DNA from: Actinomycetota bacterium
GTDB taxonomy: Bacteria; Actinomycetota; Thermoleophilia; BMS3ABIN01
Direction of reading: 5' to 3'
NCBI GenBank assembly: GCA_023382335.1
Contig: JAMCPM010000002.1
Location: 115,173 to 179,172 of the forward strand
Length of the DNA stretch: 64,000 nucleotides
Position 1 is the stretch's first letter. Every line of letters begins with the position of its first letter. The position numbers were made by a program, and so were the translations under genes. Shown one piece after another: positions 12,718 to 42,958 of the stretch. The notes beneath the pieces are model-generated. The model saw only the letters and a program-made list of their open reading frames with translations. It was not told where the DNA came from and made no database searches.

Positions 12718-12889
12718 GGCAGCGGGATCTCTGGAGGCTAGCTCCACGGATTTTTCCCACTTGGCTCTTTGTACTGACCCAGGTCAATCGCCGCGAAGTG
12801 GGAGAATTGCTTTGAAGCACCGGCTGAAGTCAATATTAGAAAGAGTCCTTCGCTTGACAAAGCGAGAGGCTGGGGGCAAGAAGTTCGGC

Positions 12890-15244
12890 ATGTACGAGCC
12901 GTATGTCCCGACGAGGGCTCGGCAGCAGGGGAAGAAGGTGCTGCGAGACCTCATCATCGTTTTCTCGGTTTTTTCGCTTGCATTCATTTTGACGACCGTA
13001 TTCGACCTTCACGGCTCATTCGAAGACGCCTCCCTGCAGATGAAAGACAGCCCATTCCAGTACGATGAGGTTGTGGTAGCGCTCGCATTTTTAGCAGCGG
13101 CTTTGGGCGTCTTCGCTCTCAGGCGCTGGCGGGAGCTGGAGAGTGAGATCATTGAAAGGATCCATATCGAAGAGGCGTTGGTCGACAGCGAAGAGCGCTA
13201 TCGCACGCTGGCCGAAGCCGCGCAGGATTTCATCTTCATAGTCGACAGGCAGGGTCTCATACGCTATTTGAATAGTTATGCGGCCAAAAAACTGGGAAGC
13301 ACTCAGGTAGAACTGATCGGCAAGAACCTTGATCTTGTGCTTCCCCAGGAAATGGCCCAGCAGCAGAATCAAGAACTCACGAAGGTTTTTTCCGAAGGCC
13401 ATCCGATTGAGGTTGAGACCCAGGCTCGTTTTGATGGAGAGGATTCATGGCTCAGCACTTCTCTGGTTCCCATTCATGACGAAAACGGCAGGTTCGAGAA
13501 TGTGCTTGGTATCTCACGCGATATCACCCAAAGGAAGCTTGCGCAGGATGCTCTCGAGCACAGCAAGGAAGGTTTGGAGGTCATGGTTACCAAACGAACG
13601 GAAGAGTTGGGTAGCGTCAACCAGCGCCTGAAGCTCGAACTGGACGAGAAGAAACTCGCTGAAGAGCGTTTGCAGGCCGTGAACCGCGCCCTGAGAACTT
13701 CCATGGCGGCCAGCCGGGCCCTTACGGCAGCTGGCGGAGAGGCCGAACTACTCAGGGAGATCTGCCAGGCTGTCGTCGCAATTGGCGGATACCGTTTTGC
13801 CTGGGTTGGATTCGCCGAGAAGAATCCGGGAAAAATGGTTCGTCCGGTTGCCTCCGCGGGTTTCGGAGATGGTTATCTGGACGCGGTCAAAGTCACTTGG
13901 GATGATTCTTCGAGTCTGGGTCTCGGCCCTGCCGGCACGGCAATTTGCACCGGCAAGCCCAGTGTTGTCCGCGACGTGCTGATAGATGAGTCCTACGCTC
14001 CCTGGCGGGGTGACGCCCTCAAGCGGGGATTTGCCTCGACCGTTTCTCTGCCGCTGAAAGCTGACGAAGAGAGCTTCGGGTCCCTTAACATTTACGCGGC
14101 CGAGCCGGAAGCATTCGATGCCGAGGAGGTCGAACATCTGAGCGAGCTGGCCAGCGATCTTTCTTACGGAATCTGCGCCATCAGGACTCGCGGTGAAAGG
14201 GATGAGCAGGCAGTGGCATTGCGAAGGACAGGCGAGCAGTTGTCACTGCTGCTGCAGTCTCTGCCGATCATTTTTTACACCAGTAGCGCCACCGATGATT
14301 TCGGCGTCACTTACGTCAGCGACAACGTGACTACGTTTACCGGTTATACGCCTGAAGAGGTAACCCTGGATTCATCGTTCTGGATGGACCGCATCCATCC
14401 TGATGATGCACCCAGGGCTTTCGAAGAAATTCCCAAGGTGTTCGATCGCGGATTCCATGAGTATGAATATCGCTGGCGCGGCGCTGACGGCAACTATAAG
14501 TGGTTCCTCGATATCCTTCGTCTTGTAAAGGCTCCTGAAGGGGAACAGGACTATATCGTGGGTATGTGGCTGGATATCACCGCACGCAAACAGGGTGAGG
14601 AAAAATTGTTGCAGGTCAAGGATCAACTCGAGGCGGATGCCCAGGTGAAGTTGGATGAGCTGACGGAGATTCGCCTCTGCCTCGATAAGACAGCTGAGAA
14701 GCTTGAAGACCGGAAGCGGCAAGATCATTTACTTAACAAGATGGACGAGTTGTTACAAAGTTGTCTAACCGTAGATGAAGCGTATGCGGTTTTCGCACGC
14801 TTTGCGAGCCGGCTCACGGAAGGGGACTCCGGAGCTTTATATCTACTGGATGAAGCCTCCCGAAGTTATACGCAGACCATTGGCTGGGGCAGCGAGCCTC
14901 CGCTGGAGAAAACGTTCGGACCCAGCGATTGCTGGTCGCTACGGCTTGGCAAGATCCACCTTTCCGCACAGGGCCAGACCGGCATGCGGTGCGCCCACGC
15001 CGGCACGGAACGGAAGTACCTTTGCACGCCGGTAAGGTTGGCGGGCAATGCCTTCGGCGTGTTGGTGCTTTCGCCATCCGATGGAGCTGATGATGAAAAG
15101 ATGGTGGAAAGGCGGGAGTTGGCGTCTTCCCTTGTGGGAAGAGTCGGCATGACCATCATCAATCTGCGGCGGCGAGAGGCAGCCGACATCATTGCCGGCA
15201 GCTCACCGGACACTTCCTGGCAAGGGAAGCTGCGGTCCCTCTAG
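12890..15244 (+). CDS. membrane-anchored multi-PAS/GAF sensor protein without recognisable output domain
   Basis: Two TM segments, then PAS modules (e.g. ERYRTLAEAAQDFIFIVD..., LQSLPIIFYTS...YRWRGADGNYKWFL...) alternating with two GAF-like regions. No HisKA/HATPase, GGDEF, EAL or HTH seen. ATG at 12890 chosen; the tool ORF start at 12620 overlaps ilvD. Confidence 0.65.
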   Translation: MYEPYVPTRARQQGKKVLRDLIIVFSVFSLAFILTTVFDLHGSFEDASLQMKDSPFQYDEVVVALAFLAAALGVFALRRWRELESEIIERIHIEEALVDSEERYRTLAEAAQDFIFIVDRQGLIRYLNSYAAKKLGSTQVELIGKNLDLVLPQEMAQQQNQELTKVFSEGHPIEVETQARFDGEDSWLSTSLVPIHDENGRFENVLGISRDITQRKLAQDALEHSKEGLEVMVTKRTEELGSVNQRLKLELDEKKLAEERLQAVNRALRTSMAASRALTAAGGEAELLREICQAVVAIGGYRFAWVGFAEKNPGKMVRPVASAGFGDGYLDAVKVTWDDSSSLGLGPAGTAICTGKPSVVRDVLIDESYAPWRGDALKRGFASTVSLPLKADEESFGSLNIYAAEPEAFDAEEVEHLSELASDLSYGICAIRTRGERDEQAVALRRTGEQLSLLLQSLPIIFYTSSATDDFGVTYVSDNVTTFTGYTPEEVTLDSSFWMDRIHPDDAPRAFEEIPKVFDRGFHEYEYRWRGADGNYKWFLDILRLVKAPEGEQDYIVGMWLDITARKQGEEKLLQVKDQLEADAQVKLDELTEIRLCLDKTAEKLEDRKRQDHLLNKMDELLQSCLTVDEAYAVFARFASRLTEGDSGALYLLDEASRSYTQTIGWGSEPPLEKTFGPSDCWSLRLGKIHLSAQGQTGMRCAHAGTERKYLCTPVRLAGNAFGVLVLSPSDGADDEKMVERRELASSLVGRVGMTIINLRRREAADIIAGSSPDTSWQGKLRSL

Positions 15245-15465: not shown

Positions 15466-16648
15466 CCAGACCTAAAAACCAGCCCATCAGATCCCAGCCG
15501 CGCTCGAACTTTAGCGCCGCGGATGACGCTGAGTCTTCGTCGAAGGATTGATCCCGGTCTGAAGCGGCCGCGGGATCGTAACAGACGAAGGGAACCGGTT
15601 CTGCAGTGTGTGTCCTGATACCGAGTGGAGTCGCATGATCAGGCAATATCAGGATGCGGTAATGGGTCGATGTAGCCAGTCCTTCAAGAAGGTTTCCCAG
15701 CAATAGAGCATCAAATCGCTCTATGGCCTCGACTTTTGCGGAGGAATCGCCCGAGTGGGACGCTTCGTCGGGAGACTCTACATGTACGTAGACGAAGTCC
15801 TTGTTTTTCAGCTCCTTGAGGGCGTACCGGGCTTTGGCGGCATAATCGGTATCCAGCCAGCCCGTTGCTCCGGGCACCTCGATGACCTCAAGGCCAGCAT
15901 ATTTGCCAAGCCCTTTGACCAGGTCAACTGCTGATATAACCGAGCCTTCCAGTCTGTAACGTTCCTTGAAGGTGGGCATTGAAGGAGCCGTGCCCTGACC
16001 CCAAAGCCAGATCATGTTGGCCGGCAGCTTGCCTTCAAGCTTTCGTTTTTCATTGATGGGGTGGCCGGCCAGCAGTTGGGCCGACTCCTGCATGAGCCCG
16101 CGAAGCCAGGCGGATTCTTCTCCTTGTGGCAGGTTAGGGTCGACCGGCTGTCCGGTGATGTCATGTGGCGGAGTGCATAAGGCTTGCAGTGCCTTGCCTT
16201 TCGATACCATGATATGACGGTAGCTCAACCCCGGGAAGAATGTCGCATCTTCGCCACCCAGGTTCTGCTGCAGGTAATCGATCAGTTCTGCGGCTGCAAC
16301 TGTGTCGATATGTCCGGCGGAGAAATCGCGCATCAGCCCATCTTCGACGCAGACGAGGTTGCAGCGGAAGGCAACGTCGCCTGACGCGAGATCGATCCCG
16401 AGGCTTGCCGCTTCCAAAGGAGCCCTGCCGGTGTAATATAAGTGAGGGTCGTAACCGAGTACGCAGAGGTTGGCGACATCGCTGCCGGGGGGAAAGCCTT
16501 CAGGAATGGTGCTTGTCAGACCGATCGTTCCCGACCTGGCTAGTCTGTCAAAATTGGGGGTATTTGCGGCCTGCAGCGGTGTGCGGCCGCCAAGTTCCGG
16601 CCTGTGCTCATCGGCTGAACCGTCAGGGATGAGAACCAGATATTTCAT
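15455..16648 (-). CDS. apgM: archaeal-type cofactor-independent phosphoglycerate mutase homologue (ApgM family)
   Basis: MKYLVLIPDGSADEHRPELGGRTPLQAANTPNFDRLARSGTIGL matches the ApgM/metalloenzyme-superfamily N-terminus. ATG at 16648 with upstream RBS; lies 8 nt downstream of thrC in the same operon. Confidence 0.8.
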   Translation of the reverse strand: MKYLVLIPDGSADEHRPELGGRTPLQAANTPNFDRLARSGTIGLTSTIPEGFPPGSDVANLCVLGYDPHLYYTGRAPLEAASLGIDLASGDVAFRCNLVCVEDGLMRDFSAGHIDTVAAAELIDYLQQNLGGEDATFFPGLSYRHIMVSKGKALQALCTPPHDITGQPVDPNLPQGEESAWLRGLMQESAQLLAGHPINEKRKLEGKLPANMIWLWGQGTAPSMPTFKERYRLEGSVISAVDLVKGLGKYAGLEVIEVPGATGWLDTDYAAKARYALKELKNKDFVYVHVESPDEASHSGDSSAKVEAIERFDALLLGNLLEGLATSTHYRILILPDHATPLGIRTHTAEPVPFVCYDPAAASDRDQSFDEDSASSAALKFERGWDLMGWFLGLEKK

Positions 16649-16656
16649 CATCCGTC

Positions 16657-17721
16657 CTAAAGCCCGAGGGTTTTGACTACCTGGTCGAAATCGGCAGCGA
16701 TACTGATTACCGCCGCGCCATTTGCGATGGCCGTGTCCGGATCCTTGAGGCCGTGTCCGGTGAGGACGCAAACGACCGTGTCGCCCTCCTGGAAAAGCCC
16801 TTCCCGGTGCTTCTTGATTACGCCGGCGATACTTGCCGCTGAAGCCGGCTCACAGAATGTCCCCTCAGTCGAGGCGACCAGCTTGTAGGCGGCGATTATC
16901 TCTTCGTCAGTGACTGAATCGATGAGGCCGCTGGAGTCGCCGGCCGCAGCAAGCGCCTGATCGCCGCGCGCAGGGTTGCCGATGCGGATTGCTGTGGCTA
17001 TTGTCTCTGGATCTTTGACTGGGTGGCCGATCACAAGCGGCGCTGCGCCGGCAGCCTGGAAGCCGATCATCCGGGGAACGCCATCGCACTTGCCAGCCTC
17101 TCGATACTCGTTAAAACCCTTCCAGTAGGCTGTTATGTTTCCGGCATTTCCAACCGGGATCGCCAGGAAGTCCGGCGCCCTGCCAAGTGAATCCACGACC
17201 TCGAAGGCGCCGGTCTTCTGTCCTTCGAGCCGGTACGGATTGATCGAGTTGACCAGTTGCACCGGGTGTTTGTCGACGATGCCACGGACGATTTCGAGCG
17301 CCTGATCGAAATTCCCTGATACAGACAGTACCTGGGCTCCATGCGTTACCGCCTGGGCCAGCTTGCCTGCCGCTATCTTGCCTTCAGGAATGATTACTAT
17401 GCAGCGGATGCCCGCCCGGCCGGCATAGGCTGCTGCCGAGGCCGAAGTGTTGCCGGTCGAAGCGCAGATGACGGCGCTGGCGCCTTCCTCAATTCCTTTG
17501 GACACGGCCAGGGTCATCCCGCGGTCCTTGAAGCTGCCCGTCGGGTTGAGCCCCTCAAGTTTGAGGAAAAGATTAAGGCCTAACCGTTCGCCCAACCGCG
17601 GCGCTGACAACAGTGGCGTGGAACCCTCGGCAAGACTGATTACCGGGGTAGCGTCGCTGACTGGAAGAAACTGCCGGTATCGTTCTATCAGGGATCTGTC
17701 CCGGGGACCGCTATTGCTCAT
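16657..17721 (-). CDS. thrC: threonine synthase
   Basis: PLP-lysine motif [12 protein letters not shown]; 354 aa. Confidence 0.9.
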
Positions 17722-18988
17722 TTTCGTTGTCTTCTACGCGGATTGGCCGCGGTTGTGATTTGACTACGGGCAGCCCGGCGATTTTTTCCAGAGCTTCCCG
17801 GAAGCCTGCTTCCTTGACCGGATGAAAGACCATTACCAGTTCGGCGTGTGCCCCCCGCCCCTGCTGGATCACGCTTTCGACACTGACTTCGTGATCGCCG
17901 AAGACCTGGGCTATCTCGGCCAGAACACCTGGCTCATCCTCTACTTCGAGACGCAGGTAAAATTTCGAGATGACCTCATCGTCGGGATAGAACTCCATCT
18001 CCCGCCACGAGGCGATGTTCTCGAACTCTCCGGGTTTTTCCCGGGCGATGATTGACGCTATGTCGCTGACGACCGCAGAAGCGGTCTCCATGCCGCCCGC
18101 TCCCGGACCCGAAAGCATGATCTCGTCGATCGCGTTTCCCTTAAGGAAGACGGCGTTGTAGGCGCCGCTGACGGTTGCCAGTGGATGGTCTTTTTTCAAG
18201 AGTGCCGGGTAGACGCGGACGTTGATCCGATCGCCGTAGAGTTTCGCCACGCCCAGCAGCTTGATCGTCAGGTCGAGATTGCGGGCGTAGGATATATCCA
18301 GGGAGTTGATATGCTCGATGCCGACGCAGGTGACGTCCTCGAGATCCACAGCGGTGTGAAAGGCGATGGATGCCAGGATCGCCATCTTGGCTGCCGCGTC
18401 TTTGCCGCTGATGTCTTCGGTTGGATCGGCTTCGGCGTATCCCCATTCCTGCGCATTGGCCAGCGCGTCTCCGTACTTGGCGCCGGTACGGCTCATTTCC
18501 GAGAGGATGAAATTCGTGGTTCCGTTGACGATTCCGTAAACGCTGGTGAGATCGGAGGCCACCATCGACTCGCGCAGAACCTTGATCACGGGGATCGCCC
18601 CGGCGACGCTGGCCTCAAATCCGATCTGTGTGTTGTTTTCGCGGGCCAGGCGGAAAAGATAAAAACCTTTTTGCGACAGAAGCTGTTTGTTGGCTGTGAC
18701 TACCGCCTTGCCACGTTCAAGAACGCTTGTGATGTAGTCGAACGCAGGCTCTAAGCCGCCGATGAGCTCGACAACCAGTGAGATCTCGGAATCCTCGAGA
18801 ATTTCCTCGAAGTTGTCCGTGAACAGATCCCGGGGGGCATCTTCCCGCGGGACGGAAATATCGCGGACCAATATCTTCTTGACGGAAACGGAGGTTCCGG
18901 TCGCCTGTGCGATCTCGATCGCCTGATTGTTGATGAGATTGTAAACGTTGGACCCAACCGTGCCATAACCGAGCAGACCGATGGATAT
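17711..18988 (-). CDS. hom: homoserine dehydrogenase with C-terminal ACT domain (start codon uncertain/non-canonical)
   Basis: NAD-binding N-terminus [20 protein letters not shown] and catalytic core, C-terminal ACT. The tool ORF begins at TTG 18871, but the GxGxxG segment is in frame upstream. No ATG/GTG/TTG lies between the in-frame TGA (19049-19051) and 18871; only ATA at 18988 or ATT at 19048. Confidence 0.8.
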
Positions 18989-19129
18989 TCTGTTTGTACT
19001 GGAATCAGCCGTTGCTAATTCTCTCCCAATAACGTAGACAGATGAAATTCATGGCGCGCTATTGCACACGAGGAAGTGCACAAGGCCAAATGTTATCAGG
19101 AGAACCTTACCGAGGGAAGCGCCGAAACG

Positions 19130-20260
19130 CTAGAGCCGACAGGCTCCGGCGTAGCTGCCGCCATAGCCGACGCTGGTAATCGAGACGACCTGGCCCTCGA
19201 AGGGGGCATGGATCATGCTGCCGCCGCCAATATAGATGCCGACGTGGCTGATCGGATGTCCGAAGAATACCAGGTCGCCCGGAGCGAGATCCGAGCGGCT
19301 GATCGGTGTGCCTGAATAATATTGAGCTGACGCCGAGTGGGGGAGGTAGATGCCCATCTGGCCGTAAACGTACATGACCAGGCCGGAACAGTCGAAACCG
19401 CTGGGTGAGGCGCCGCCCCAGACATAAGGGACGCCAAGGTACTGCATCGCTATCGACACTGCGCCCGCGGCTGATGGCGGGGGCGGGCTGCTTGACCCTG
19501 GATCGGGGTCTGGTGATGGAGCTGGCGTTTGCCCGTCCTGTGATGAATCGCTGCCCTGGTCACCGCCGCTTTGTCCTGCCGGTGGAGCCGCCGTCGGGGC
19601 AGACCCGGGAGCTGCGGGGGCCGGTTGTTGTTGCGCCAACATCTGGGCAACGTCGCCCTCGGCGCTTGAGAGCACCGCTTGCCTTGCGGCCAGTTGTGAT
19701 TCTACCGCCGATTTTTCCGAAGCGACCGTGTCGACTAATTCCTGCTGGCGCTGCAGGGTTCGATCAAGTTCATCCCTCGCATTTTCTGCGTCGCTTTTGT
19801 ATCCCAACACCTCATCGATGTCGGACTTGTCCTGGGCGCCGATCTTTCCCAGCAAGTCAAAACGTGACATGAATTCGTTGAATGAGGTGGTGTTTAGAAC
19901 CACTTCCATGAAACTCATGGATCCCTGGCGGTAGATGTTTTCCAAGCGCTTATCAAGCCGCTTCTGGGCTTCGCTTAGCTTGGCGGTAGCGTCGGCCAGC
20001 GCTTTTTCATTCTCTGAAATCTGGCGCCGGGTTTCTTCCAGCTGGGAATTGGCCTGATTGTAACGTTCGACAGCCTGTTCGGCCTCGGAATTGATTGAGG
20101 AAACTTCATTGCGGACGCGGTCCACTTCGGCCTGTTTTGCAGACAGGTCCGTGTCTGCGGCGGCGGTTCCACCCACTAAAAGCAGGGCCGACAAAAGTGC
20201 GCCTGCCACTACCAGCGCCGTCAAGGAGAGATTATGCCGGCTATTTTTGAGGGGCTTCAT
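19130..20260 (-). CDS. NlpC/P60 (C40) peptidoglycan endopeptidase with N-terminal coiled coil and Pro-rich linker (RipA-like)
   Basis: C-terminal catalytic motif YVWGGASPSGFDCSGLVMYVY...HVGIYIG; long coiled-coil region; PAPxPxP linker; signal/TM segment from MKPLKNSRHNLSLTALVVAGALL (ATG at 20260). Confidence 0.8.
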   Translation of the reverse strand: MKPLKNSRHNLSLTALVVAGALLSALLLVGGTAAADTDLSAKQAEVDRVRNEVSSINSEAEQAVERYNQANSQLEETRRQISENEKALADATAKLSEAQKRLDKRLENIYRQGSMSFMEVVLNTTSFNEFMSRFDLLGKIGAQDKSDIDEVLGYKSDAENARDELDRTLQRQQELVDTVASEKSAVESQLAARQAVLSSAEGDVAQMLAQQQPAPAAPGSAPTAAPPAGQSGGDQGSDSSQDGQTPAPSPDPDPGSSSPPPPSAAGAVSIAMQYLGVPYVWGGASPSGFDCSGLVMYVYGQMGIYLPHSASAQYYSGTPISRSDLAPGDLVFFGHPISHVGIYIGGGSMIHAPFEGQVVSITSVGYGGSYAGACRL

Positions 20261-20455
20261 TTTAATGACCGCTTTCGTTTCCGTTTTTGACGTGGGGACG
20301 CCAGTGATCTTCCCCGCATCCGGGCCTTGAATCGCCACAATAGTCTGTTTCAACCCTGATCTGCGAACCCCTGCAAAAAGGTTCAGGCCATTAAAGGATG
20401 TTCAAAAGGGACCGATGGGACCAGTAATCTGCAGGTTTCACCATTTGGGGCGGTA

Positions 20456-22213
20456 ATGCGATCTTCTTTTACGCGGACCAGGGCATTTCTTTATTGCGTA
20501 GCAGGGGCGGCAGCGGGTCTGATCTATGCCGTCTTTGCCTATCTCATCGTTGCCAGGTTCGGCAGTGACCATGAAGCCATGCATATAGGTGTAGCGCCCA
20601 TCCTTGCAGGAGCTGCCGCCTATGTGATTGGCAGGGAAGCCGACCGCATAAACAAGCAGTCACAAATGCTTGCCGACGCCAAACAGCAATTCTCCGCCCT
20701 GACCCATGCCGCCATCACCCAGCGAGACTGGAATGTCAGCTTTGAAGATCCTCAGATTCCCACTTGCTGGGAAGTGAAGAACTGTGAGGCCAAGGATTGC
20801 CCTTCATACGGTAAACATCATGTCCGTTGCTGGCTGGTCGCCGGGACCTTCTGCCGCGGTGAAGTCCAGGGGCGCTTTGCCCAGAAGCTCGGTGACTGCG
20901 CTAAATGCGAGGTCTACCAGCTTTCGACCGAACGGGATCCCATCGATGAGATCGGTGAGAATTTCAACAGTCTGATGTGGGCCTTGCGCGAGAAAGAAGA
21001 GATGCTCTCCGAAACGAATGATGAGTTGCAGAGCCAGTACGGTGAACTCGAGCTGTTGCACAGGCAGGCACGTGAGCGAGCGGATACGGATATGTTAACC
21101 GGCTTGCGCAATCACGCGCATTTTCAGGATCACCTTCACAGTGAAGTCGAAAAGGCCCTGGCGCTAAAACAGCCGCTGTCACTAATCATGCTCGACCTGG
21201 ACCGGTTTAAATCCGTCAATGATGAATTCGGCCATCAGAAAGGGGATGAGGTCCTGCAGCTGGTTGGCAAGCTGATCCGCGATGAGATCGGGAATTCGGC
21301 TTATGGAGCGCGGTATGGGGGCGAGGAGTTCGCTATCGTCATGCCTTCGACATCAGCGAAGCTGGCAATTGAGACAGCTGATAACCTGCGTCGCCGAATG
21401 AAATCTTTAGAAGATGAAGTCAGTCTGCCGCCGGGATTCGTAGGCGGCAGCTTTGGAGTGGCTGATCTGCCCCATTGTGCCAGTGACGCCGACAGCCTGA
21501 TATCCGCATCTGATGCGGCCCTTCTGTTCGCCAAACGCAAAGGGAGGGACCGGGTAGCATATTTCCGTGATCTTTCTGACACGGAGCTTCGCGCTGGTGA
21601 CATGGACAAGCTTCACAGCCGTCTCGAGGGAGCCAGCCTGCAGACTATTCGTGCGCTGGCCGAGGCGGTCGACGCCAGCGATCAATATTCCAAATGCGAC
21701 CAGTCGCAGATGGCCAGAGTTGCAGCAGCAATGGCTGAGCGGCTTGGTATGGAGGAGGAGAAAGCCGATGCCCTGGCACTGGCGGCGAGGCTGCACGACA
21801 TAGGCAAAGTGGGTGTCCCGAGCTCGATCCTGCGGAAGAAGGAAAAACTGTCGCCGGCAGAGCTGTTACTGGTTCAGCAGCACCCTGCGATCGGCCAACG
21901 TCTCCTAAAGGAAGTCGAACAGATACAGGAGTTGATCCAGGCAATCCTCTATCATCACGAGCGCTGGGACGGCCAGGGATATCCCGAGAAGCTCAGGGGA
22001 GAACAGATTCCGGTAATGGCCCGCGTGATCGGTATCATGGATGCTTACCGGGCGATGCTCAGCGATCGCCCCTATCGCAAGGCGCTCACTCCCGCCGCAG
22101 CGATTCAGGAGTTGCGCAAGGGAGCCGGGAGCCAGTTTGATCCGCAGCTCGTAGAGATATTTGTCGAGTTGATCGGCAAAGACCAGGCTCCGAAGCTGCG
22201 GCATGCCGGATGA
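20456..22213 (+). CDS. membrane protein with conserved 8-Cys module + GGDEF diguanylate cyclase + HD-GYP phosphodiesterase domains
   Basis: Two TM helices; Cys module CWEVKNCEAKDCPSYGKHHVRCWLVAGTFCRGEVQGRFAQKLGDCAKCEVY; GGDEF with RYGGEEF; HD-GYP with HDIGKVGVP and HHERWDGQGYP. Confidence 0.85.
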   Translation: MRSSFTRTRAFLYCVAGAAAGLIYAVFAYLIVARFGSDHEAMHIGVAPILAGAAAYVIGREADRINKQSQMLADAKQQFSALTHAAITQRDWNVSFEDPQIPTCWEVKNCEAKDCPSYGKHHVRCWLVAGTFCRGEVQGRFAQKLGDCAKCEVYQLSTERDPIDEIGENFNSLMWALREKEEMLSETNDELQSQYGELELLHRQARERADTDMLTGLRNHAHFQDHLHSEVEKALALKQPLSLIMLDLDRFKSVNDEFGHQKGDEVLQLVGKLIRDEIGNSAYGARYGGEEFAIVMPSTSAKLAIETADNLRRRMKSLEDEVSLPPGFVGGSFGVADLPHCASDADSLISASDAALLFAKRKGRDRVAYFRDLSDTELRAGDMDKLHSRLEGASLQTIRALAEAVDASDQYSKCDQSQMARVAAAMAERLGMEEEKADALALAARLHDIGKVGVPSSILRKKEKLSPAELLLVQQHPAIGQRLLKEVEQIQELIQAILYHHERWDGQGYPEKLRGEQIPVMARVIGIMDAYRAMLSDRPYRKALTPAAAIQELRKGAGSQFDPQLVEIFVELIGKDQAPKLRHAG

Positions 22214-22235
22214 TTAGCCGGGCGATGCTCTCGTT

Positions 22236-24032
22236 ATGATCGATTTCCTCTCGAAAAGATTGTCATCAATGAAGCGGATCCTGTTTGTGATGCTAGCTTT
22301 CGGCTTGTCCATAGGCCTGGTGTTCCCATATATCGCCAGCCCCTTTGTCACATGGGATCCAGAAAAGAAGATCTATTTCCGCCTTGCATGCCTGGCCGCG
22401 GGTCTGGCCGTAGGCTCATTCTGTTATTACCTCGTTAAGATCACCCTTTATCAGCGCAACAAGATGCTTGCCCTCCAGAAACGCGAACTGGAGGAAGCCA
22501 AATCTCGCTTCGGTTCATTGACCCATAATGCCATCGAATCGCAGATGTGGGATGTGAGCTTCGAAGATTCACGGGTTCCGACCTGCTGGCAGACCAAGGA
22601 TTGCAGCCAGGGGGATTGTCCCGCTTTCGGACGGGAACATCTGCGCTGTTGGTTGATAGCCGGGACTTACTGTGGGGGCCAGATACAGGGCCGGTTTGCC
22701 CAGAAGCTCGGTGACTGTTCCAAATGCGATGTCTATTTGCAGGCGGTTGGAGAAAATCCTATCAGCGAGATCGGTGAAAACTTCAACAGCCTGATGCTGG
22801 CCGTCAGGGAGAAGGAGGACCTGCTGGCGGCTGCTAACGAGGAACTGAAAGATCAATATATTGAGCTGGAGCTGCTGCACAGGCAGGCGCGTGAGATGGC
22901 AAACACGGATCTGCTCACAGGGTTGCGAAACCATGCCCATTTTCAGCATCATATCCGCTGGGAGATCGATAAGGCCGGGCAAGGCAGCCTGCCGCTTTCT
23001 CTGATCATGCTCGATCTCGACCATTTCAAGTCAATTAACGACAGCTACGGGCATCAAAAAGGAGACGAAGTCCTCAAGCGGGTCGGCAAGAAGCTCAGTG
23101 AAGAGATTAAGAGTGGGGGCTACGCCGCCAGATACGGCGGCGAGGAGTTTGTCGTCCTGTTGCCGGGCTCGGTGGCAGAAAAGGCGATGGCCATCGCCGA
23201 CAGGTTGAGAGACAGCATCAAGGAGATCGCCGGCGAGATCGAGCTGCCCCAACGGGCAGTCGGCGCCAGCTTCGGTGTGGCCGATCTGCCTGAGTGTGCC
23301 AGCGATGCCGGCAGCCTTATCTCTGCGGCCGATTCGGCGTTGCTTTTTGCCAAGCGCCGGGGGCGCGACCGGGTAGCATATTTCAAGGACCTCAACGGCA
23401 CCGAACTCCAGGAAGGCGATGTCGAGCGCCTGCACAATCGGCTCGAAGGCGCCAGCCTGCAAACGATCCGGGCGCTGGCCGAGGCGGTCGACGCCAACGA
23501 CGACTACACGCTAGAGGCCAGCAGTTCCATGGATGGCGTCGCGGCTGCCCTGGCCGAGCAGCTCGGCCTCGATAAGGAGCAGGCGGACACGCTGTTTCTG
23601 GCCTCGAGACTTCACGACATCGGCAAAATCGGTGTGCCGGGGTCCATCCTCAGGAAGACAGAGAAACTTTCAGTGGAAGAACTGGCAAAGCTGCAACAAC
23701 ATCCCGAAATCGGGCAGCGGATACTCCAGGAAGCGATGCAACTCCAGGATCTGATCTCCGCCATTCTCTATCATCACGAGCGCTGGGATGGGACCGGCTA
23801 TCCCGAGAGGCTTCATGGTAAGCAGATTCCTCTGACGGCGCGGATCGTCGGCATCATGGATGCGTACCGGGCAATGCGCTCTGACCGCCCTTACCGCAAA
23901 GCGCTTAGCCGCGAGAACGCGATCACCGAACTCGAGAAGGGAGCCGGCACCCAGTTCGATCCACGGCTGGTAAAGAAGTTCGTCGAGCTTGCCCGCCAGG
24001 ACAACGTCGAGAAATTTCGCCGCGCCGGTTAG
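22236..24032 (+). CDS. paralogous 8-Cys module + GGDEF + HD-GYP membrane protein (tandem duplicate)
   Basis: Same architecture: CWQTKDCSQGDCPAFGREHLRCWLIAGTYCGGQIQGRFAQKLGDCSKCDVY; RYGGEEF; HDIGKIGVP; HHERWDGTGYP. Confidence 0.85.
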   Translation: MIDFLSKRLSSMKRILFVMLAFGLSIGLVFPYIASPFVTWDPEKKIYFRLACLAAGLAVGSFCYYLVKITLYQRNKMLALQKRELEEAKSRFGSLTHNAIESQMWDVSFEDSRVPTCWQTKDCSQGDCPAFGREHLRCWLIAGTYCGGQIQGRFAQKLGDCSKCDVYLQAVGENPISEIGENFNSLMLAVREKEDLLAAANEELKDQYIELELLHRQAREMANTDLLTGLRNHAHFQHHIRWEIDKAGQGSLPLSLIMLDLDHFKSINDSYGHQKGDEVLKRVGKKLSEEIKSGGYAARYGGEEFVVLLPGSVAEKAMAIADRLRDSIKEIAGEIELPQRAVGASFGVADLPECASDAGSLISAADSALLFAKRRGRDRVAYFKDLNGTELQEGDVERLHNRLEGASLQTIRALAEAVDANDDYTLEASSSMDGVAAALAEQLGLDKEQADTLFLASRLHDIGKIGVPGSILRKTEKLSVEELAKLQQHPEIGQRILQEAMQLQDLISAILYHHERWDGTGYPERLHGKQIPLTARIVGIMDAYRAMRSDRPYRKALSRENAITELEKGAGTQFDPRLVKKFVELARQDNVEKFRRAG

Positions 24033-24155
24033 CAGACCGCTCCGCCTTAAGTTGAAATCTTCCTCGAACTTCAATATCATACTTTCCCAATGGCCTCAGT
24101 TGTTGCGAACAATTCTGTTGCGCAGGAACCGGCCTCCCCCGCGGGAGGCAGTTTA

Positions 24156-24221
24156 GTGCTGCCCGCCGCGATCTCCCTCCAGAGCTTGCTTCTCCTCCCC
24201 CTGTCGGGGGAGATTATCTAG
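24156..24221 (+). CDS. putative leu operon leader peptide (Leu-codon-rich): VLPAAISLQSLLLLPLSGEII
   Basis: GGGAGG Shine-Dalgarno 7 nt before GTG 24156 (alternative ATG at 24090). Run TTG CTT CTC CTC ... CTG encodes LLLL-P-L within a GC hairpin; a further hairpin plus T-rich tract lies before leuA. Confidence 0.4.
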   Translation: MLPAAISLQSLLLLPLSGEII

Positions 24222-24223
24222 TA

Positions 24224-24262
24224 GTTTGCCCGTGCGGCAAACCTGCCATCTTTATTCCGTTT
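24224..24262 (+). terminator. candidate attenuator terminator upstream of leuA
   Basis: GTTTGCC-cgtg-GGCAAAC hairpin followed by T-rich CTGCCATCTTTATTCCGTTTTATC. Confidence 0.4.
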
Positions 24263-24293
24263 TATCAAACCTTGGATGGTTTTAGGAGAAGCA

Positions 24294-25814
24294 ATGGACC
24301 CTCATCGTATTACCATATTTGACACGACGCTGCGGGACGGCGAACAGTCCCCCGGCATCAGTCTCAATTCCTTCGAGAAGCTGGAGATTGCCGAGCAGCT
24401 GGCGCGGCTGGGAGTCGACGTCATCGAAGCCGGCTTTCCGATATCGTCTCCCGGCGATTTCGAAGGCGTTGAAAAGATCGCCCGCAATGTTTCCGGTGTG
24501 ACTATCTGCGCCCTGGCGCGGGCCATGGAGAAAGACGTGCGCACAGCCTGGGACGCGATCAGGGAAGCTGAGCGCCCCCGCATCCATACTTTCATTTCAA
24601 CCAGCGACGTTCATCTCAAGCATCAGTTGCGCAAGACGCGCGAGGAAGTGCTGGAGGCAGCCAAACGCATAGTCGCGCTGGCTGTGAGCCTGTGCGATGA
24701 TGTCGAGTTCTCGGCCATGGATGCCACCCGTAGCGACCCAGACTACCTGGCCGCGGTGTTGCAGGCGGCAATCGACGAGGGCGCCACCACCATCAATATT
24801 CCTGATACCGTCGGTTACGCCATTCCCAGCGAGTTCGGCGATTTCATCCGGGAGCAGTTCAAGAAGGCCCCCGGCCTGAAAGACGTGGCCGTGAGCGTGC
24901 ATTGCCATAACGATCTGGGCCTGGCGGTTGCAAATTCCCTGGCGGCGGTAGAGAACGGCGCTACCCAAGTGGAATGCGCTATCAACGGTCTGGGGGAACG
25001 TGCGGGCAATGCTTCCCTGGAAGAGATCGTTATGATCCTGGAGACCCGCAAGCGCACGCTGGGACGGGCGACCGGCGTCAAGACCGTGGAGATTGCGCGC
25101 ACCAGCCGCCTGGTGAGCCAGCTGACCGGGTACGACGTGCAGCCCAACAAGGCGATTGTGGGCAAGAACGCTTTTGCTCACGAGTCCGGCATCCACCAGG
25201 ACGGCGTGCTGAAGGAGCGCACAACCTATGAGATCATGAATGCGGCCAGCGTCGGCCGGGGGCAGAGCGACCTGGTGCTGGGCAAGCACTCCGGGCGCCA
25301 CGCTCTCAAGGCGGCGATGGAAGAGCTGGGTTATAACCTGAGCGAGGAGGACCTCAACCAGGCTTTTGTGCATTTCAAGAAGGTCGCGGACAAGAAGAAG
25401 CAGATCACCGCGGTCGACCTGGAGCATCTGGTCAGCGAAGAGATACGCGAGCTCACGGATATATATGAGCTGAAGTCATACGAGGTCAGTTCCAGTTCGG
25501 AGTTCGTCCCGACCTGTCAGGTGATCATAGAAAAGGAAGGGGAGAAGCTGCTGGGCAAGAGTTTCTCCGGCGGATCGATGGAATCTATCTTCAAGGCCAT
25601 CGATGACGCCGTAGGCACCAAGGGCAAGCTGAAGGATTACCAGGTGCGTTCCGTGACCGAGGGCAAGGATTCCCTCGGCGAGGTGCGCGTCGTGGTCGAG
25701 GTACAAGGCAAGGCGTATGCGGGCACGGCGCTGTCGATCGATGTGGTCGAGGCCAGCGCCAAGGCATATGTCCGCGCGCTCAATAATGCATACAGAGCCG
25801 GGGCGGTGACATAG
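24294..25814 (+). CDS. leuA: 2-isopropylmalate synthase
   Basis: ITIFDTTLRDGEQSPGIS HMGL-like TIM barrel plus LeuA dimerisation domain. AGGAG RBS before ATG 24294 (in-frame ATG also at 24276). Confidence 0.9.
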   Translation: MDPHRITIFDTTLRDGEQSPGISLNSFEKLEIAEQLARLGVDVIEAGFPISSPGDFEGVEKIARNVSGVTICALARAMEKDVRTAWDAIREAERPRIHTFISTSDVHLKHQLRKTREEVLEAAKRIVALAVSLCDDVEFSAMDATRSDPDYLAAVLQAAIDEGATTINIPDTVGYAIPSEFGDFIREQFKKAPGLKDVAVSVHCHNDLGLAVANSLAAVENGATQVECAINGLGERAGNASLEEIVMILETRKRTLGRATGVKTVEIARTSRLVSQLTGYDVQPNKAIVGKNAFAHESGIHQDGVLKERTTYEIMNAASVGRGQSDLVLGKHSGRHALKAAMEELGYNLSEEDLNQAFVHFKKVADKKKQITAVDLEHLVSEEIRELTDIYELKSYEVSSSSEFVPTCQVIIEKEGEKLLGKSFSGGSMESIFKAIDDAVGTKGKLKDYQVRSVTEGKDSLGEVRVVVEVQGKAYAGTALSIDVVEASAKAYVRALNNAYRAGAVT

Positions 25815-27086
25815 ATGGCAAGACCAATGAATATAACCGAGAAGATCCTGGCGCGCTCCTGCGGCCGGGAGGATGTTCAGCCCGGCGATTTCATCAACGC
25901 CAGGCTGGATCTGGCGCTGGCAAACGACATCACGGCGCCGCTGGCTATCAAGGAGTTTGAGTCGGCGGGAATCGAGCGGGTCTGGGACCCGGAGAAAGTC
26001 GTCATGGTATGCGACCACTTTGTTCCCAATAAGGACATAAAATCAGCCGAGCAGACCAAGCTGGTGCGCGATTTCGCGCGTCGTCAGGGGCTGGTTAATT
26101 TCTTTGACGTCGGACGGATGGGCATCGAGCATGTGATCCTGCCGGAGAAAGGCCTGGTTGTGCCCGGAGATGTCGTGATAGGCGCCGATTCCCATACCTG
26201 CACATACGGGGCGCTGGGAGCTTTCGCCACGGGCGTCGGCAGCACGGATCTGGCGGCCGGCATGGCCACCGGGGAAGTCTGGTTGCGGGTTCCGGAGACG
26301 ATCAGGTTCAATTACGAAGGCGAGCCGGGGCGCTATGTGACCGGCAAGGATTACATCCTCTACACCATCGGCATGGTCGGCGTCGACGGGGCGCTCTACC
26401 AGTCCATGGAGTTCGCTGGCGGCGCCATCAGGAACCTGTCGATGGACGGACGCTTCACCATGTGCAACATGGCCATCGAGGCCGGCGGCAAGAGCGGCAT
26501 CGTCGAACCCGACGCAGTCACCGAGGAATATTGCCGCGGGCGGGCCCTGCGGGAGCCTGTGATGCTGGCGAGCGATGAGGCGGCCGGCTACATGCGCGTC
26601 ATAGATATAGACGTCTGCACGATCGAGCCGCAGGTGGCAAAGCCGCATCTGCCTTCCAATTCCGTGCCGGCCTCCGAGCTTGCCGGTCTGAAGATCGATC
26701 AGGTGGTCATAGGTTCCTGCACCAACGGTCGTATCGAGGACTTGAGGATGGCGGCGGAGGTGCTCAAGGGGCACAAGGTCCATCCTGACATCAGGACCCT
26801 GGTCTTCCCCGGAAGCCAGCAGGTCTATCGGCAGGCTATGAAGGAAGGGCTGATAGACATCTTCGTCGAGGCTGAGGCCGCGGTCAGCACGCCGACGTGC
26901 GGTCCCTGCCTGGGTGGCCACATGGGCATTCTGGCTGCCGGCGAGCGTTGCGTCTCGACGACCAACCGCAATTTCGTTGGCCGGATGGGCCACCCCGAGA
27001 GCGAAGTATATCTGGCCGGGCCTTATGTGGCCGCGGCCACGGCGGTAGCCGGTACGGTGACGGTTCCACAGGAGGTGCTGGCATGA
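25815..27086 (+). CDS. leuC: 3-isopropylmalate dehydratase large subunit
   Basis: Aconitase-family catalytic domain, 423 aa (short LeuC/HACN type); ATAGATG junction with the leuA stop. Confidence 0.85.
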
Positions 27087-27123
27087 CGATCGATTTCGGC
27101 AATTGCGACAGGGCGGTGCCCTC

Positions 27124-27627
27124 ATGATCTTCGAAGGCACAGCACACACATATGGGCGCGACGTCGATACCGACGTCATCATCCCGGCGCGGTATCTGAA
27201 CACGCATGATCCCGACGAGCTCGCGGCCCATTGCATGGAAGACATCGACAAGGATTTCATCGAGCGGGTGCAACCGGGCGACATCATCGTCGCCGGGGAG
27301 AACTTCGGCTGCGGCTCTTCCAGGGAACAGGCGCCGGTAGCGATCAAGGCTGCGGGGGTTTCCTGCGTGGTCGCGGCTTCGTTTGCGCGGATCTTCTATC
27401 GCAACGCCATCAACATCGGGCTGCCGATCCTGGTATGTCCGGAGGCGGCGCGCGATGTGAAGAGCGGCGACCGGCTCAAGGTTGATCTGGACAAGGGCGA
27501 GGTCGAGGACCTGACCCAGGACCGCACATTCCAGGCGGACCGGTTTCCCGAATTCATGCAGAAGATCGTGACTGCGGGAGGCCTGATGAACTATGTCAAG
27601 GAACGGAGCGGAGGATCGAATGCATAA
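27124..27627 (+). CDS. leuD: 3-isopropylmalate dehydratase small subunit
   Basis: MIFEGTAHTYGRDVDTDVIIPARYL aconitase swivel domain, about 167 aa. Confidence 0.85.
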   Translation: MIFEGTAHTYGRDVDTDVIIPARYLNTHDPDELAAHCMEDIDKDFIERVQPGDIIVAGENFGCGSSREQAPVAIKAAGVSCVVAASFARIFYRNAINIGLPILVCPEAARDVKSGDRLKVDLDKGEVEDLTQDRTFQADRFPEFMQKIVTAGGLMNYVKERSGGSNA

Positions 27628-28678
27628 CATAGCTGTCATGCCCGGCGACGGAACCGGACCCGAAGTCGTTCGCGAAGGGCTGAAGGTCCTCGCCGCGGCT
27701 GCGTTGCGATTCGGTTTCGAGTACGAGACCACCGACTATGATTTTGGCGGCGACCGGTATCTGAAGACCGGTGAGACCCTGCCGGACTCGGCCCTGGAGG
27801 AGCTCAAGGGCCACGACGCCATCTTCCTGGGCGCCATCGGGCATCCCGACGTCAAGCCGGGCATACTGGAGCAGGGAATCCTGCTCAAGGCGCGTTTCGA
27901 GCTGGACCAGTATATAAATCTGCGGCCGGTCAAGTTGTTCCCCGGTGTGGAGACGCCGGTCAAGGACAAGGGACCGGAAGACATCGATTTCGTGGTCGTC
28001 CGCGAGAACACCGAGGGCCTCTATGTCGGCGCCGGCGGCTTCCTCAAAAAGGGAAAGCCCGATGAGGTGGCCATACAGGAGAGCATCAACACCCGCAAGG
28101 GCGTCGAGCGTTGCATCCGCTACGCATTTGATTATTGCCAGCGCCGTGGCAAGGACAACAAGCTGACCATGTGCGGCAAGACCAACGTGCTCAACTATTC
28201 GCAGGACCTGTGGATGCGGACCTTCAACGAGACGGCGCCGGATTATCCGGGAGTGAAGCCCGATTACGCGCACGTGGACGCCATCTGCATGTGGTTCATC
28301 AAGAACCCGGAATGGTTCGACGTCATCGTCACCGACAACATCTTCGGCGACATCATCACCGACCTCGGGGCGATGATCCAGGGCGGCATGGGCATCGCCG
28401 CGGGCGGCAACATCAATCCTGAGGGCGTTTCCATGTTCGAGCCGATCGGCGGCTCGGCCCCGAAATACACGGGCCAGAATGTGATCAACCCTCTTGCGGC
28501 GATAGCCGCAGTGCAGATGATGCTCGAGTTTTTGGGAGAAAACGAGGCGGGCGCCGCGGTCGAGGCCGCGATAACGGATGTCACGGCCAACAAGCTCGAC
28601 AGCCTGGCGGTCGGCCGGACTGGATATTCAACATCAGAGATCGGCGACATGGTGGCCGAGAGGGTAGCCACTAGCTAA
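27620..28678 (+). CDS. leuB: 3-isopropylmalate dehydrogenase
   Basis: MHNIAVMPGDGTGPEVV isocitrate/isopropylmalate dehydrogenase family N-terminus; operon context; overlaps the leuD end. Confidence 0.85.
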   Translation: MHNIAVMPGDGTGPEVVREGLKVLAAAALRFGFEYETTDYDFGGDRYLKTGETLPDSALEELKGHDAIFLGAIGHPDVKPGILEQGILLKARFELDQYINLRPVKLFPGVETPVKDKGPEDIDFVVVRENTEGLYVGAGGFLKKGKPDEVAIQESINTRKGVERCIRYAFDYCQRRGKDNKLTMCGKTNVLNYSQDLWMRTFNETAPDYPGVKPDYAHVDAICMWFIKNPEWFDVIVTDNIFGDIITDLGAMIQGGMGIAAGGNINPEGVSMFEPIGGSAPKYTGQNVINPLAAIAAVQMMLEFLGENEAGAAVEAAITDVTANKLDSLAVGRTGYSTSEIGDMVAERVATS

Positions 28679-29650: not shown

Positions 29651-31249
29651 ATGACCAAGCGCATCGAAATATACGACACGACCTTGCGGGACGGCATGCA
29701 GCGGGAGGGCATGAGCGTCTCGGTGGACGAGAAGGTCCAGATCGCGCTGCGGCTGGACCGCCTCGGCGTGCACTATATCGAAGGCGGTTTCCCGGGGTCC
29801 AATCCCAAGGATGTGGAATTTTATCAAAAGATGGCCGCTCACAGGCTGCGCACCGCGCGGCTGGCTGCCTTCGGCATGACCCATCGCAAGGACCTGACGC
29901 CGGCCAAGGATCCCATGGTCAGGGAATTGCTGAAGGTGAACACTCCCGTGGTCGCGATCGTGGGCAAGAGCTGGAAGCTCCATACCGTCAAGGTGCTTCG
30001 TGTCAGCCTGCATGAAAACCTCAAACTGATATCGTCGACGGTCGGCTACCTGGCAAAGAAGGGGCGCGAAGTCTTTTTTGACGCGGAACATTTTTTTGAC
30101 GGGTTCAGGGACGATCGTGAGTATTCGCTGCAGACGCTGCGCGAGGCGGTGGAGGGCGGCGCTGCCAGACTGGTCCTTTGCGACACCAACGGAGCCACGT
30201 TGCCTGGCGAGGCCGCTGAGATAGTACGGGCCGTACGCCAGGAGCTTCCCGCGGTGCCGGTGGGCATCCATGCCCACAACGACTCCGACTGCGCGGTGGC
30301 AGTTTCCCTCATGGCCGTGGAGGCCGGAGCAACACAGGTTCAGGGTACTGTCAACGGATACGGCGAGCGTTGCGGCAACGCCAACCTGATCTCGGTCATT
30401 CCCGCTCTCAAGCTGAAGATGGGGCTCGATTGCGTCACCGACCGCAGGCTTGCCGAGCTGACGGAGACGTCACATTACGTGGCCGAGGTGGTAAATGTCA
30501 GCCCCGAGACCCATCAGCCTTATGTAGGCGAGAACGCCTTCGCTCACAAGGGCGGCCTGCACGTGAGCGCCGCCCTCAGGGACGCACGCACGTTCGAGCA
30601 TGTGGATCCGGCGCTGGTTGGCAATCAGCAGCGCATACTCGTGAGCGAGCTGGCTGGCCGCGCGACCGTTCTCAAGAAAGCCGCGGAGATGGGCATCGAC
30701 CTGGCCGGCGAGAAGGACAAGGAGAAACTGGACCGCCTGCTTCGCCGCCTCAAGGAAAAGGAACACGCCGGCTACCATTATGAGGTCGCCGACGCTTCCT
30801 TCGAGCTATTCTTACGCCGTGAGCTGGGTCTGCATAAATCGATGATCGAACTGGATAACTTCCGTGTGATTGTCCAGAAACGAAAGAGCGCCGTCATCAG
30901 CGAAGCCAAGATAGTCCTCAAGGGGAACGGCGGCGGCGAGCTGCCGATCGCTTTCTCCGAAGGCAACGGACCCGTGAATGCTCTTGATATCGCCCTGAGA
31001 AAGCTGCTGCCGGCCAGATTCCCGAAGCTGGTTGAAGAGCTTTCACGCATCCATCTGGTCAACTACAAGGTGCGGATCCTGAATGAGCACAAGGGCACGG
31101 GCGCGGTTACCCGCGTACTGCTCGACTCCAGCGACGGCCAGGACACCTGGGGGACCATCGGCGTCTCGGAAAACATCATCGAGGCCAGCTGGGAAGCCCT
31201 GGTAGACAGCATCGAGTACGGCATGGTCAAGCGCCACCGGCGCCGATAG
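29651..31249 (+). CDS. cimA: (R)-citramalate synthase
   Basis: MTKRIEIYDTTLRDGMQREGMSVSVDEKVQIALRLDRLGVHYIEGGFPGSNPKD, 532 aa; LeuA-like but of the CimA long-form type with DGMQ motif. Confidence 0.8.
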   Translation: MTKRIEIYDTTLRDGMQREGMSVSVDEKVQIALRLDRLGVHYIEGGFPGSNPKDVEFYQKMAAHRLRTARLAAFGMTHRKDLTPAKDPMVRELLKVNTPVVAIVGKSWKLHTVKVLRVSLHENLKLISSTVGYLAKKGREVFFDAEHFFDGFRDDREYSLQTLREAVEGGAARLVLCDTNGATLPGEAAEIVRAVRQELPAVPVGIHAHNDSDCAVAVSLMAVEAGATQVQGTVNGYGERCGNANLISVIPALKLKMGLDCVTDRRLAELTETSHYVAEVVNVSPETHQPYVGENAFAHKGGLHVSAALRDARTFEHVDPALVGNQQRILVSELAGRATVLKKAAEMGIDLAGEKDKEKLDRLLRRLKEKEHAGYHYEVADASFELFLRRELGLHKSMIELDNFRVIVQKRKSAVISEAKIVLKGNGGGELPIAFSEGNGPVNALDIALRKLLPARFPKLVEELSRIHLVNYKVRILNEHKGTGAVTRVLLDSSDGQDTWGTIGVSENIIEASWEALVDSIEYGMVKRHRRR

Positions 31250-41316: not shown

Positions 41317-41523
41317 CGGCTAGGTGCTCTAAAACTGCTATCGGAAATGCGGCGGGCGGCCATTAGGAAAGGCCAGGCGGCGCCAGATTCTGGAAATTAG
41401 GCCGTCCGGGTGTTATAAGATGGGCGCAACCGGTCAGAATAGAACTCAGTGAAACCGGGCATACGAAGCTTCATCCGTCCACCTACAGTCGTGGACGTCG
41501 TTTTTGACCAGAGCCCCGAGAGG

Positions 41524-42915: not shown

Positions 42916-42958
42916 ATGTGCGGCTTCGCTGGCCGACCGCTTGCAGAAAGGCATTGCC

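Follow-up and report, generated by a model that had tools for sequence, protein, structure and literature searches.

Several diguanylate cyclases are gated by a cofactor: DgcZ contains a zinc-binding CZB domain, DosC a haem globin, and Bhr-DGC a hemerythrin. In all three, a metal or cofactor input is coupled via a helical linker to a GGDEF dimer; coiled-coil control of this type is established for other diguanylate cyclases, and the pairing of GGDEF with HD-GYP in one protein has long been known. The same design is proposed here for two proteins, A and B, encoded by adjacent genes in a 64,000-nucleotide (nt) stretch of DNA (referred to as the window) from an Actinomycetota bacterium of the class Thermoleophilia (assembly GCA_023382335.1, contig JAMCPM010000002.1, positions 115,173 to 179,172). 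Each protein harbored a seven-Cys module of the two-CW family between its membrane anchor and its GGDEF domain and HD-GYP domain. The inputs of DgcZ, DosC, and Bhr-DGC were of other kinds (a 3His/1Cys four-helix bundle, haem, and a di-iron centre, respectively); none of them was a Cys7 module, and none displayed homology to A or B.

In working mode, the closest analogue of two-CW was found among the iron-sulfur (Fe-S) sensor kinases NreB (with [4Fe-4S] in a PAS domain), AirS, and chloroplast sensor kinase CSK (PMC6949291). In these kinases, as in the majority of two-CW relatives, which are also histidine kinases, a cytoplasmic domain with a Cys-ligated cofactor (a predicted one in two-CW) lies upstream of the kinase output, but they displayed no kinship in sequence or fold: (i) the cluster of NreB, AirS, and CSK sits within a PAS or GAF fold and involves three to four Cys and (ii) two-CW formed a unit of its own, about 55 aa long, with seven Cys and with no neighbour in the PDB. 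Taking together the conservation, placement, and predicted structure presented below, we give an even chance to the reading that two-CW is an input domain for redox state or gas, which binds a metal or Fe-S and controls the cyclase through a coiled coil.

Gene A (20456..22213, + strand) encoded a GGDEF + HD-GYP membrane protein of 585 aa, and gene B (22236..24032, + strand) encoded its paralogue of 598 aa with identical domain order, as identified from the list of open reading frames (ORFs), Pfam, and NCBIfam; the two adjacent same-strand ORFs lay exactly at the coordinates stated in a preliminary description of the window. The N-terminus of A matched that of its orthologue P0001. The intergenic gap was 22 nt, no terminator-like site was found in it, and the two genes were probably co-transcribed. 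Both proteins displayed the order of two transmembrane (TM) segments, helix, two-CW module, coiled coil (a probable one, see below), GGDEF, and HD-GYP, and the architecture claimed at first (two TM segments, a Cys module, GGDEF with a GGEEF site, and HD-GYP) was supported by hydropathy, Pfam, and motif scan. Proteins A and B were 59% identical over their full length, with 33/51 identical residues (65%) in the module, 63% identity in GGDEF, 68% in HD-GYP, 64% in the linker, and 20% in the TM region. The TM region was hence the only part that had diverged, and the earlier picture of a near-identical module between diverged flanks was overstated.

Two-CW modules within the window were confined to these two genes. 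The tandem pair encoding two-CW, GGDEF, and HD-GYP recurred in at least nine related loci from metagenome-assembled genomes (MAGs), which indicated that the tandem duplication was old, and the same related genomes held additional two-CW–GGDEF paralogues. The DNA of the window, compared over 16456–28032, was 84–91% identical to and syntenic with JAJZQT010000016.1 ('Actinomycetes bacterium SKS1.bin55'; locus L004), and the gene order NlpC/P60, gene A, gene B, and leuA was common to several Thermoleophilia MAGs.

The two-CW domain spanned aa 103–158 of A (20762..20929, + strand; 40.4 bits) and aa 116–170 of B (22581..22745, + strand; 38.2 bits), as scored with NF045718, a domain-type model that is used in annotation by the NCBI Prokaryotic Genome Annotation Pipeline (PGAP) and has a curated cutoff of 35 bits. 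By these profile matches, the modules of A and B are members of the two-CW family, which is catalogued by NCBI as a name without a function; both copies exceeded the curated cutoff, so that the module could no longer be called unrecognised, as it had been in the preliminary description. The isolated 68-aa module scored 46.8 bits against NF045718, no Pfam family was matched by the isolated module at E ≤ 1, and these profile searches gave no match to a domain whose function has been characterised, the outcome that would have refuted the preliminary description. The two-CW module was the sole non-catalytic globular module in A and B.

The seven Cys were located at residues 104, 110, 115, 125, 133, 148, and 151 in A and at residues 117, 123, 128, 138, 146, 161, and 164 in B, and two of them in each module were followed by Trp to form the Cys-Trp dipeptides C104-W105 and C125-W126 in A and C117-W118 and C138-W139 in B. 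Seven Cys were thus present in 51 module residues, against three in the remaining 534 (A) or 547 (B) residues. The module sequences quoted at first were correct, but the count of eight Cys drawn from them was not, since the quoted sequence itself contained seven. All seven aligned with Cys of named two-CW family members.

Profile positions 2–78 of 80 were covered by just 56 residues, the variable loops being shorter than in the full-scoring stand-alone members: compared to the longest forms, the modules of the window were shorter by about 10 aa from Cys2 to Cys3 and by about 11 aa from Cys3 to Cys4. They shared the AGTxCxGxxQGxFAxK core with full-scoring NF045718 members and displayed two conserved flanks that were absent from the stand-alone proteins, namely 'F.(N/D)P' on the N-terminal side and 'DP..IGE.FN.M' on the C-terminal side. 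As judged from these alignments, the modules of A and B are the short-loop form, which is predominant in multidomain signalling proteins.

The two-CW family proved to be large. When 1.84 billion representatives, clustered at 50% identity, were searched exhaustively with HMMER, 1,370 two-CW clusters were retrieved at E ≤ 1e-3, of which 526 had E ≤ 1e-10; a word-indexed search with the two paralogues as query gave only 2 proteins. The relatives scored 37–113 bits with NF045718, and the stand-alone relatives alignable with the modules of the window scored 84–113 bits. Conservation was analysed in the 150 best-scoring representatives, with mutual identity below 50%, which together contained 159 module copies. 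All seven Cys were 98–100% conserved, and R124, W126, G130, T131, G135, Q138, G139, F141, A142, and K144 (A numbering) were near-invariant; the family pattern was C-[WYH]-x4-C-x(4-16)-C-P-x(8-20)-C-W-x2-A-G-T-x-C-x-G-x2-Q-G-x-F-A-x-K-x3-C-x2-C. An extra eighth Cys ('CPC') occurred in 47/159 copies and was not found in the proteins of the window. No conserved His, Asp, or Glu was found inside the module in this alignment; the His shared by A and B, taken at first as a conserved ligand, was not kept in the family, its column being occupied by Asn (59), Pro (20), and Ala (19) among 156 copies. As only the seven Cys were left as conserved candidate ligands, with none among His, Asp, or Glu, the eight-ligand arithmetic behind the earlier proposal of two clusters or a Zn2Cys6-like site was lost. 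The earlier idea of a conserved Cys-rich input module found support, homologues having kept the Cys and having the module together with signalling outputs, and binding of Fe-S or Zn with gating by redox state, O2, or NO is plausible.

Such a density of Cys (7/51 residues) in a cytoplasmic domain would also fit a metal-free thiol switch, in which the Cys would turn reversibly into disulfides or persulfides on exposure to oxidants or reactive sulfur species; the reshaped domain would then drive the output. An odd number of Cys poses no problem to such a switch, and many hosts of two-CW genes (e.g. Thermodesulfovibrionia and Desulfobulbales) are sulfur- or sulfate-metabolising. However, a thiol switch normally requires one or two conserved Cys, while the near-absolute conservation of seven Cys at the fixed spacings C-x5-C and C-x7-C-x14-C-x2-C is the signature of a cofactor cage, and the thiol switch was accordingly considered very improbable. 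Nothing relevant was found in the literature on two-CW, NF045718, or its motif, or on related Fe-S or Cys-rich sensors; a survey of HD-GYP proteins (10.1101/2021.11.05.467447) described no such Cys module, and no link to two-CW could be made from a report of Cys-rich heliorhodopsin extensions (10.1101/2021.02.01.429150), whose text contained no sequences.

Domain scanning of 73 relatives identified HATPase_c in 45, HisKA in 42, a receiver in 27, PAS in about 20, HAMP in 13, GGDEF in 11, Hpt in 10, GAF in 5, and EAL in 1. The histidine kinases displayed the order periplasmic Cache, TM, HAMP, about 40–60 aa, two-CW, about 25 aa, and HisKA, which placed two-CW in the cytoplasm and in line directly before the output helix. 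By domain assignment, the family thus sits downstream of HAMP, PAS, or TM elements and is followed by a helix leading into the dimerization and histidine phosphotransfer (DHp) domain of a histidine kinase or into GGDEF. Two modules in tandem were present in 7/150 relatives (P0003, P0005, P0006, P0012, P0014, P0076, and P0126); in some of these tandem-module relatives, one copy was short of a Cys (e.g. 'GTFSGD' in P0012).

Many free-standing proteins of 68–106 aa (P0153–P0271) consisted of the two-CW domain alone, part of them already carrying the NCBI name 'two-CW domain-containing protein'. One stand-alone gene lay 17 nt downstream of a gene for a methyl-accepting chemotaxis protein (MCP) signalling domain (locus L087). 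The existence of free-standing two-CW proteins in many genomes, together with this one pair of neighbours, would agree with a docking or localisation element (e.g. for free-standing two-CW proteins), the enzymes then being regulated elsewhere, for example via the membrane segments or through binding of GTP or c-di-GMP (cyclic di-GMP) between GGDEF and HD-GYP; GGDEF–phosphodiesterase hybrids, such as GGDEF-EAL proteins, are generally known to cross-regulate. In hundreds of architectures, however, the module was located in line between helices and just ahead of DHp or GGDEF, which is a PAS/GAF/HAMP-type position. No conserved partner gene was found in the neighbourhoods of seven stand-alone two-CW genes, and no free-standing two-CW gene was found within the window. 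Docking was therefore rated improbable.

Sequence and profile searches of the PDB with the two-CW module gave noise only and no related chain. A two-CW alignment of 116 members was composed of 114 relatives (mostly stand-alone) plus the two modules of the window. Modelling of a stand-alone member with these 116 aligned sequences in AlphaFold2 (AF2) gave a mean predicted local distance difference test (pLDDT) score of 87.8 and a predicted template-modelling (pTM) score of 0.73, and the model contained several short helices and one beta-hairpin; this confident modelling of a stand-alone member pointed to an autonomous fold of two-CW. Fold comparison of the two-CW model detected no similarity to any solved zinc-finger class and no predicted-fold neighbour.

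Among the 116 alignment members, 25 displayed weak sub-threshold matches to DUF2769 (PF10967), the best having E 4.8e-4, and the match in the first alignment member spanned the Cys3–Cys7 half of two-CW. No alignment member reached the gathering score of 22.8 bits (maximum about 20), and the module of the window gave no match to DUF2769 at E ≤ 1. These matches suggest a distant link of two-CW to DUF2769, itself Cys-rich and without characterised function.

A small, loop-rich domain with short helices and one beta-hairpin, as in the AF2 model, would also suit a structural zinc module, made up of Zn(Cys)4 plus Zn(Cys)3-water or of a binuclear thiolate-bridged Zn2Cys7. Such a module would rigidify or dimerise the signalling helix without redox or gas sensing; at most, it would signal how much zinc is available, or that thiols have been oxidised and zinc released. 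The terminal CxxC knuckle, the invariant Gly and Pro beside Cys, the frequent transducer-like position after bona fide sensors (Cache, PAS, and GAF), and the weak zf-primase matches in 3/116 alignment members, described as stand-alone, were all in keeping with zinc. However, zinc ribbons and treble clefs normally have two knuckles while two-CW had one CxxC pair only; two-CW lacked a conserved His and any fold likeness to a solved zinc-finger class; its apparent limit to lineages of anoxic habitats is unexpected for purely structural zinc; and A and B, having no other input domain, would be left as unregulated enzymes. The structural zinc module was thus judged rather unlikely, though a clearly stronger competitor than the thiol switch or docking.

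The membrane anchor of A (20483..20632, + strand) contained two hydrophobic segments (about aa 10–32 and 43–59), as detected by Kyte-Doolittle windows above 1.6; they were joined by a loop of about 10 aa, with no periplasmic domain, and two N-terminal hydrophobic segments were likewise found in B by hydropathy. Basic residues preceded TM1 (Arg2, Arg7, and Arg9 in A) and followed TM2 (Arg60, Arg64, and Lys67), from which an N-in/C-in topology was inferred by the positive-inside rule; the whole protein after TM2 would therefore be cytoplasmic, with no periplasmic sensor.

The helical linker from two-CW to GGDEF in A (20933..21079, + strand; beginning with 'DPIDEIGENFNSLM...') was marked as a probable coiled coil by heptad periodicity, a family motif, and AF2. 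It was about 50 aa long, with hydrophobic residues at 71% (A) and 86% (B) of the heptad a/d positions, E168, F170, and N171 (A numbering) in the helix after the module were conserved across the family, and AF2 placed a helix of low confidence at model residues 77–91. As predicted from these features, the linkers of both A and B are probably coiled coils. In multidomain proteins, the module was followed by the conserved helix start 'DP..(I/L)GE.FN.MM' (20933–20986 in A and 22752–22805 in B; relatives P0003–P0152). This motif resembled the HAMP AS2 motif 'DEIG.L...FN.M' yet was three residues shorter. The possibility that the module was an insertion inside HAMP, raised by the 'EIGE.FN.M' motif, was rejected: canonical HAMP was a separate upstream domain in related kinases, and the Pfam scan gave no match to HAMP (PF00672) in the proteins of the window at E ≤ 1.

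The GGDEF domain occupied aa 209–366 of A (21080..21553, + strand; GGEEF at 288–292) and aa 222–379 of B (22899..23372, + strand; GGEEF at 301–305). PF00990 was matched at profile positions 1–161 of 161, with 134.9 bits (E 2.9e-39) in A and 142.7 bits (E 1.1e-41) in B against a cutoff of 23.8 bits. The substrate- and metal-binding motifs D-x-D...FK..ND ('LDLDRFKSVND'), RxGGEEF ('ARYGGEEF'), and AK..GR ('AKRKGRDRV') were all present, and the GGDEF domains of A and B look fully competent. A motif scan detected no allosteric inhibitory RxxD I-site upstream of GGEEF in A or B.

The HD-GYP domain occupied aa 401–565 of A (21656..22150, + strand; HD 447–448, HHE 500–502, and GYP 509–511; PF13487 E 3.8e-41) and aa 414–578 of B (23475..23969, + strand; HD 460, HHE 513, and GYP 522; PF13487 E 2.9e-40), with HD_5/HD-GYP scores of 141.1 (A) and 138.2 (B) bits over profile positions 3–170 of 170. 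The sequence comparison was applied to these C-terminal domains together with PmGH (4MCW), PA4781 (4R8Z), V-cGAP3 (5Z7C), and RpfG, and they aligned over full length with E values from 1e-27 to 1e-34. In PmGH numbering, A and B kept D183, H221/D222, K225, H250, H276/H277, G-Y-P, D305, and R314-x-Y-(K/R); of the PmGH metal ligands H189, H221, D222, H250, H276, H277, and D305, six were present in A and B while H189 was missing, its position in alignments to 5z7c, 4mcw, and 9rbz being taken by Asp416 in A and by Ala in B. Moreover, the position of PmGH Glu185 was Tyr in A and B, a mark of the subfamily predicted to be binuclear, and the KPG motif had the counterparts KKE in A and KTE in B. The His189 equivalent was absent in all 37 HD-GYP domains of two-CW proteins from related Thermoleophilia loci (L001–L036). 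These HD-GYP domains without His189 may define a distinct subgroup with a reduced metal centre. PmGH was inactivated by the H189A substitution, though RpfG, also without this His, was active (PMC4159591); hydrolysis of c-di-GMP by A and B is therefore plausible but not assured.

Host lineages were examined by a genome scan of one genome per GTDB species, which gave 244 relatives. The nearest genome relatives were Thermoleophilia, Gaiellales, and 'Actinomycetes' MAGs, whose isolate names suggest groundwater, deep-mine, and sediment samples; the next-nearest hosts were Nitrospirota/Thermodesulfovibrionia, Phycisphaerae, Desulfobulbales plus other Deltaproteobacteria, and one Poribacteria MAG, and Syntrophales were also seen. 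These host lineages are largely anaerobic.

A stepwise mechanism can be proposed for A and B as predicted from these features. Two-CW would be the input domain of both proteins, and its seven thiolates would hold a metal cofactor. This cofactor would most likely be Fe-S, which we put forward tentatively, followed by zinc; Fe-S was favoured because of Cys-only ligands, the C-x5-C-x4-C-P triad followed by C-x7-C-x14-C-x2-C, and the distribution in anoxic habitats. The module could, for example, contain one 4-Cys cluster and a 3-Cys site, one position of which would be open or exchangeable. The shape of the module would be altered when the cofactor is oxidised, nitrosylated, or lost, or when a ligand binds; the altered shape would shift the register or spacing of the downstream dimeric coiled coil; and this shift would toggle the GGDEF pair between productive and non-productive pairing. 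The HD-GYP domain, which probably retains a binuclear metal centre as proposed for RpfG, may degrade c-di-GMP reciprocally or act constantly at a low rate. In its widest form, held with somewhat more doubt, the proposal is that two-CW may be an Fe-S sensor of new fold (e.g. [4Fe-4S] plus an open 3-Cys site) that gates histidine kinases, diguanylate cyclases, and chemoreceptors across anaerobic bacteria.

Several observations weighed against an Fe-S or metal-gated input domain with the full set of properties set out above: (i) seven Cys without an eighth conserved ligand do not suit two canonical four-ligand sites; (ii) a single CxxC pair in a small loop-rich fold is equally typical of zinc modules; (iii) coming often after Cache, PAS, and GAF sensors, two-CW may be a transducer or a structural element; (iv) the AF2 model of the window's own module had a pLDDT of 60.7 and was too uncertain to use; (v) the seven stand-alone neighbourhoods contained neither a recurring partner nor a recurrent redox or Fe-S gene; (vi) the habitat bias was drawn from the best 78 loci and from MAG names, not from a controlled comparison; and (vii) the term 'bifunctional' for these synthase/hydrolase proteins is plausible but uncertain, both HD-GYP domains lacking the ligand equivalent to His189.

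Several other genes of the window were also noted. A GAF-GGDEF protein was present at 55105–56412, as had been described. The 874-aa ORF at 12620–15244 (+ strand) encoded sensors only (PAS, GAF, PAS, and GAF) with no recognised output domain, and its annotated TTG start overlapped the end of an ilvD-like gene (10984–12717) by about 100 nt, so its true start was probably further downstream. Two LeuA/HMGL-type synthase paralogues (24276–25814 and 29651–31249, + strand) belonged to one branched-chain amino-acid cluster, in which a leuC-like gene began at 25815; we take these paralogues to be, probably, an isopropylmalate synthase and a citramalate- or homocitrate-type synthase. A radical SAM protein of 489 aa was encoded at 9400–10869 (+ strand), and a TldD/PmbA metallopeptidase gene pair was located at 41449–44302 (+ strand).

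The gain from A and B themselves is modest, one more member being added to an NCBI-catalogued family. Only a minority of bacterial histidine kinases and c-di-GMP enzymes have been assigned a stimulus, above all in uncultured anaerobes, and identification of the two-CW ligand would give a stimulus to hundreds of signalling proteins and might add a new cofactor-binding fold. A and B are good test proteins, with two-CW as the sole candidate input and with c-di-GMP synthesis as an easily assayed output, and the free-standing members (70–105 aa) are ideal for spectroscopy. If two-CW is an Fe-S sensor, A and B would to our knowledge be the first GGDEF/HD-GYP enzymes under Fe-S regulation, in which c-di-GMP would be tied directly to the redox, O2, or NO status of the cell.

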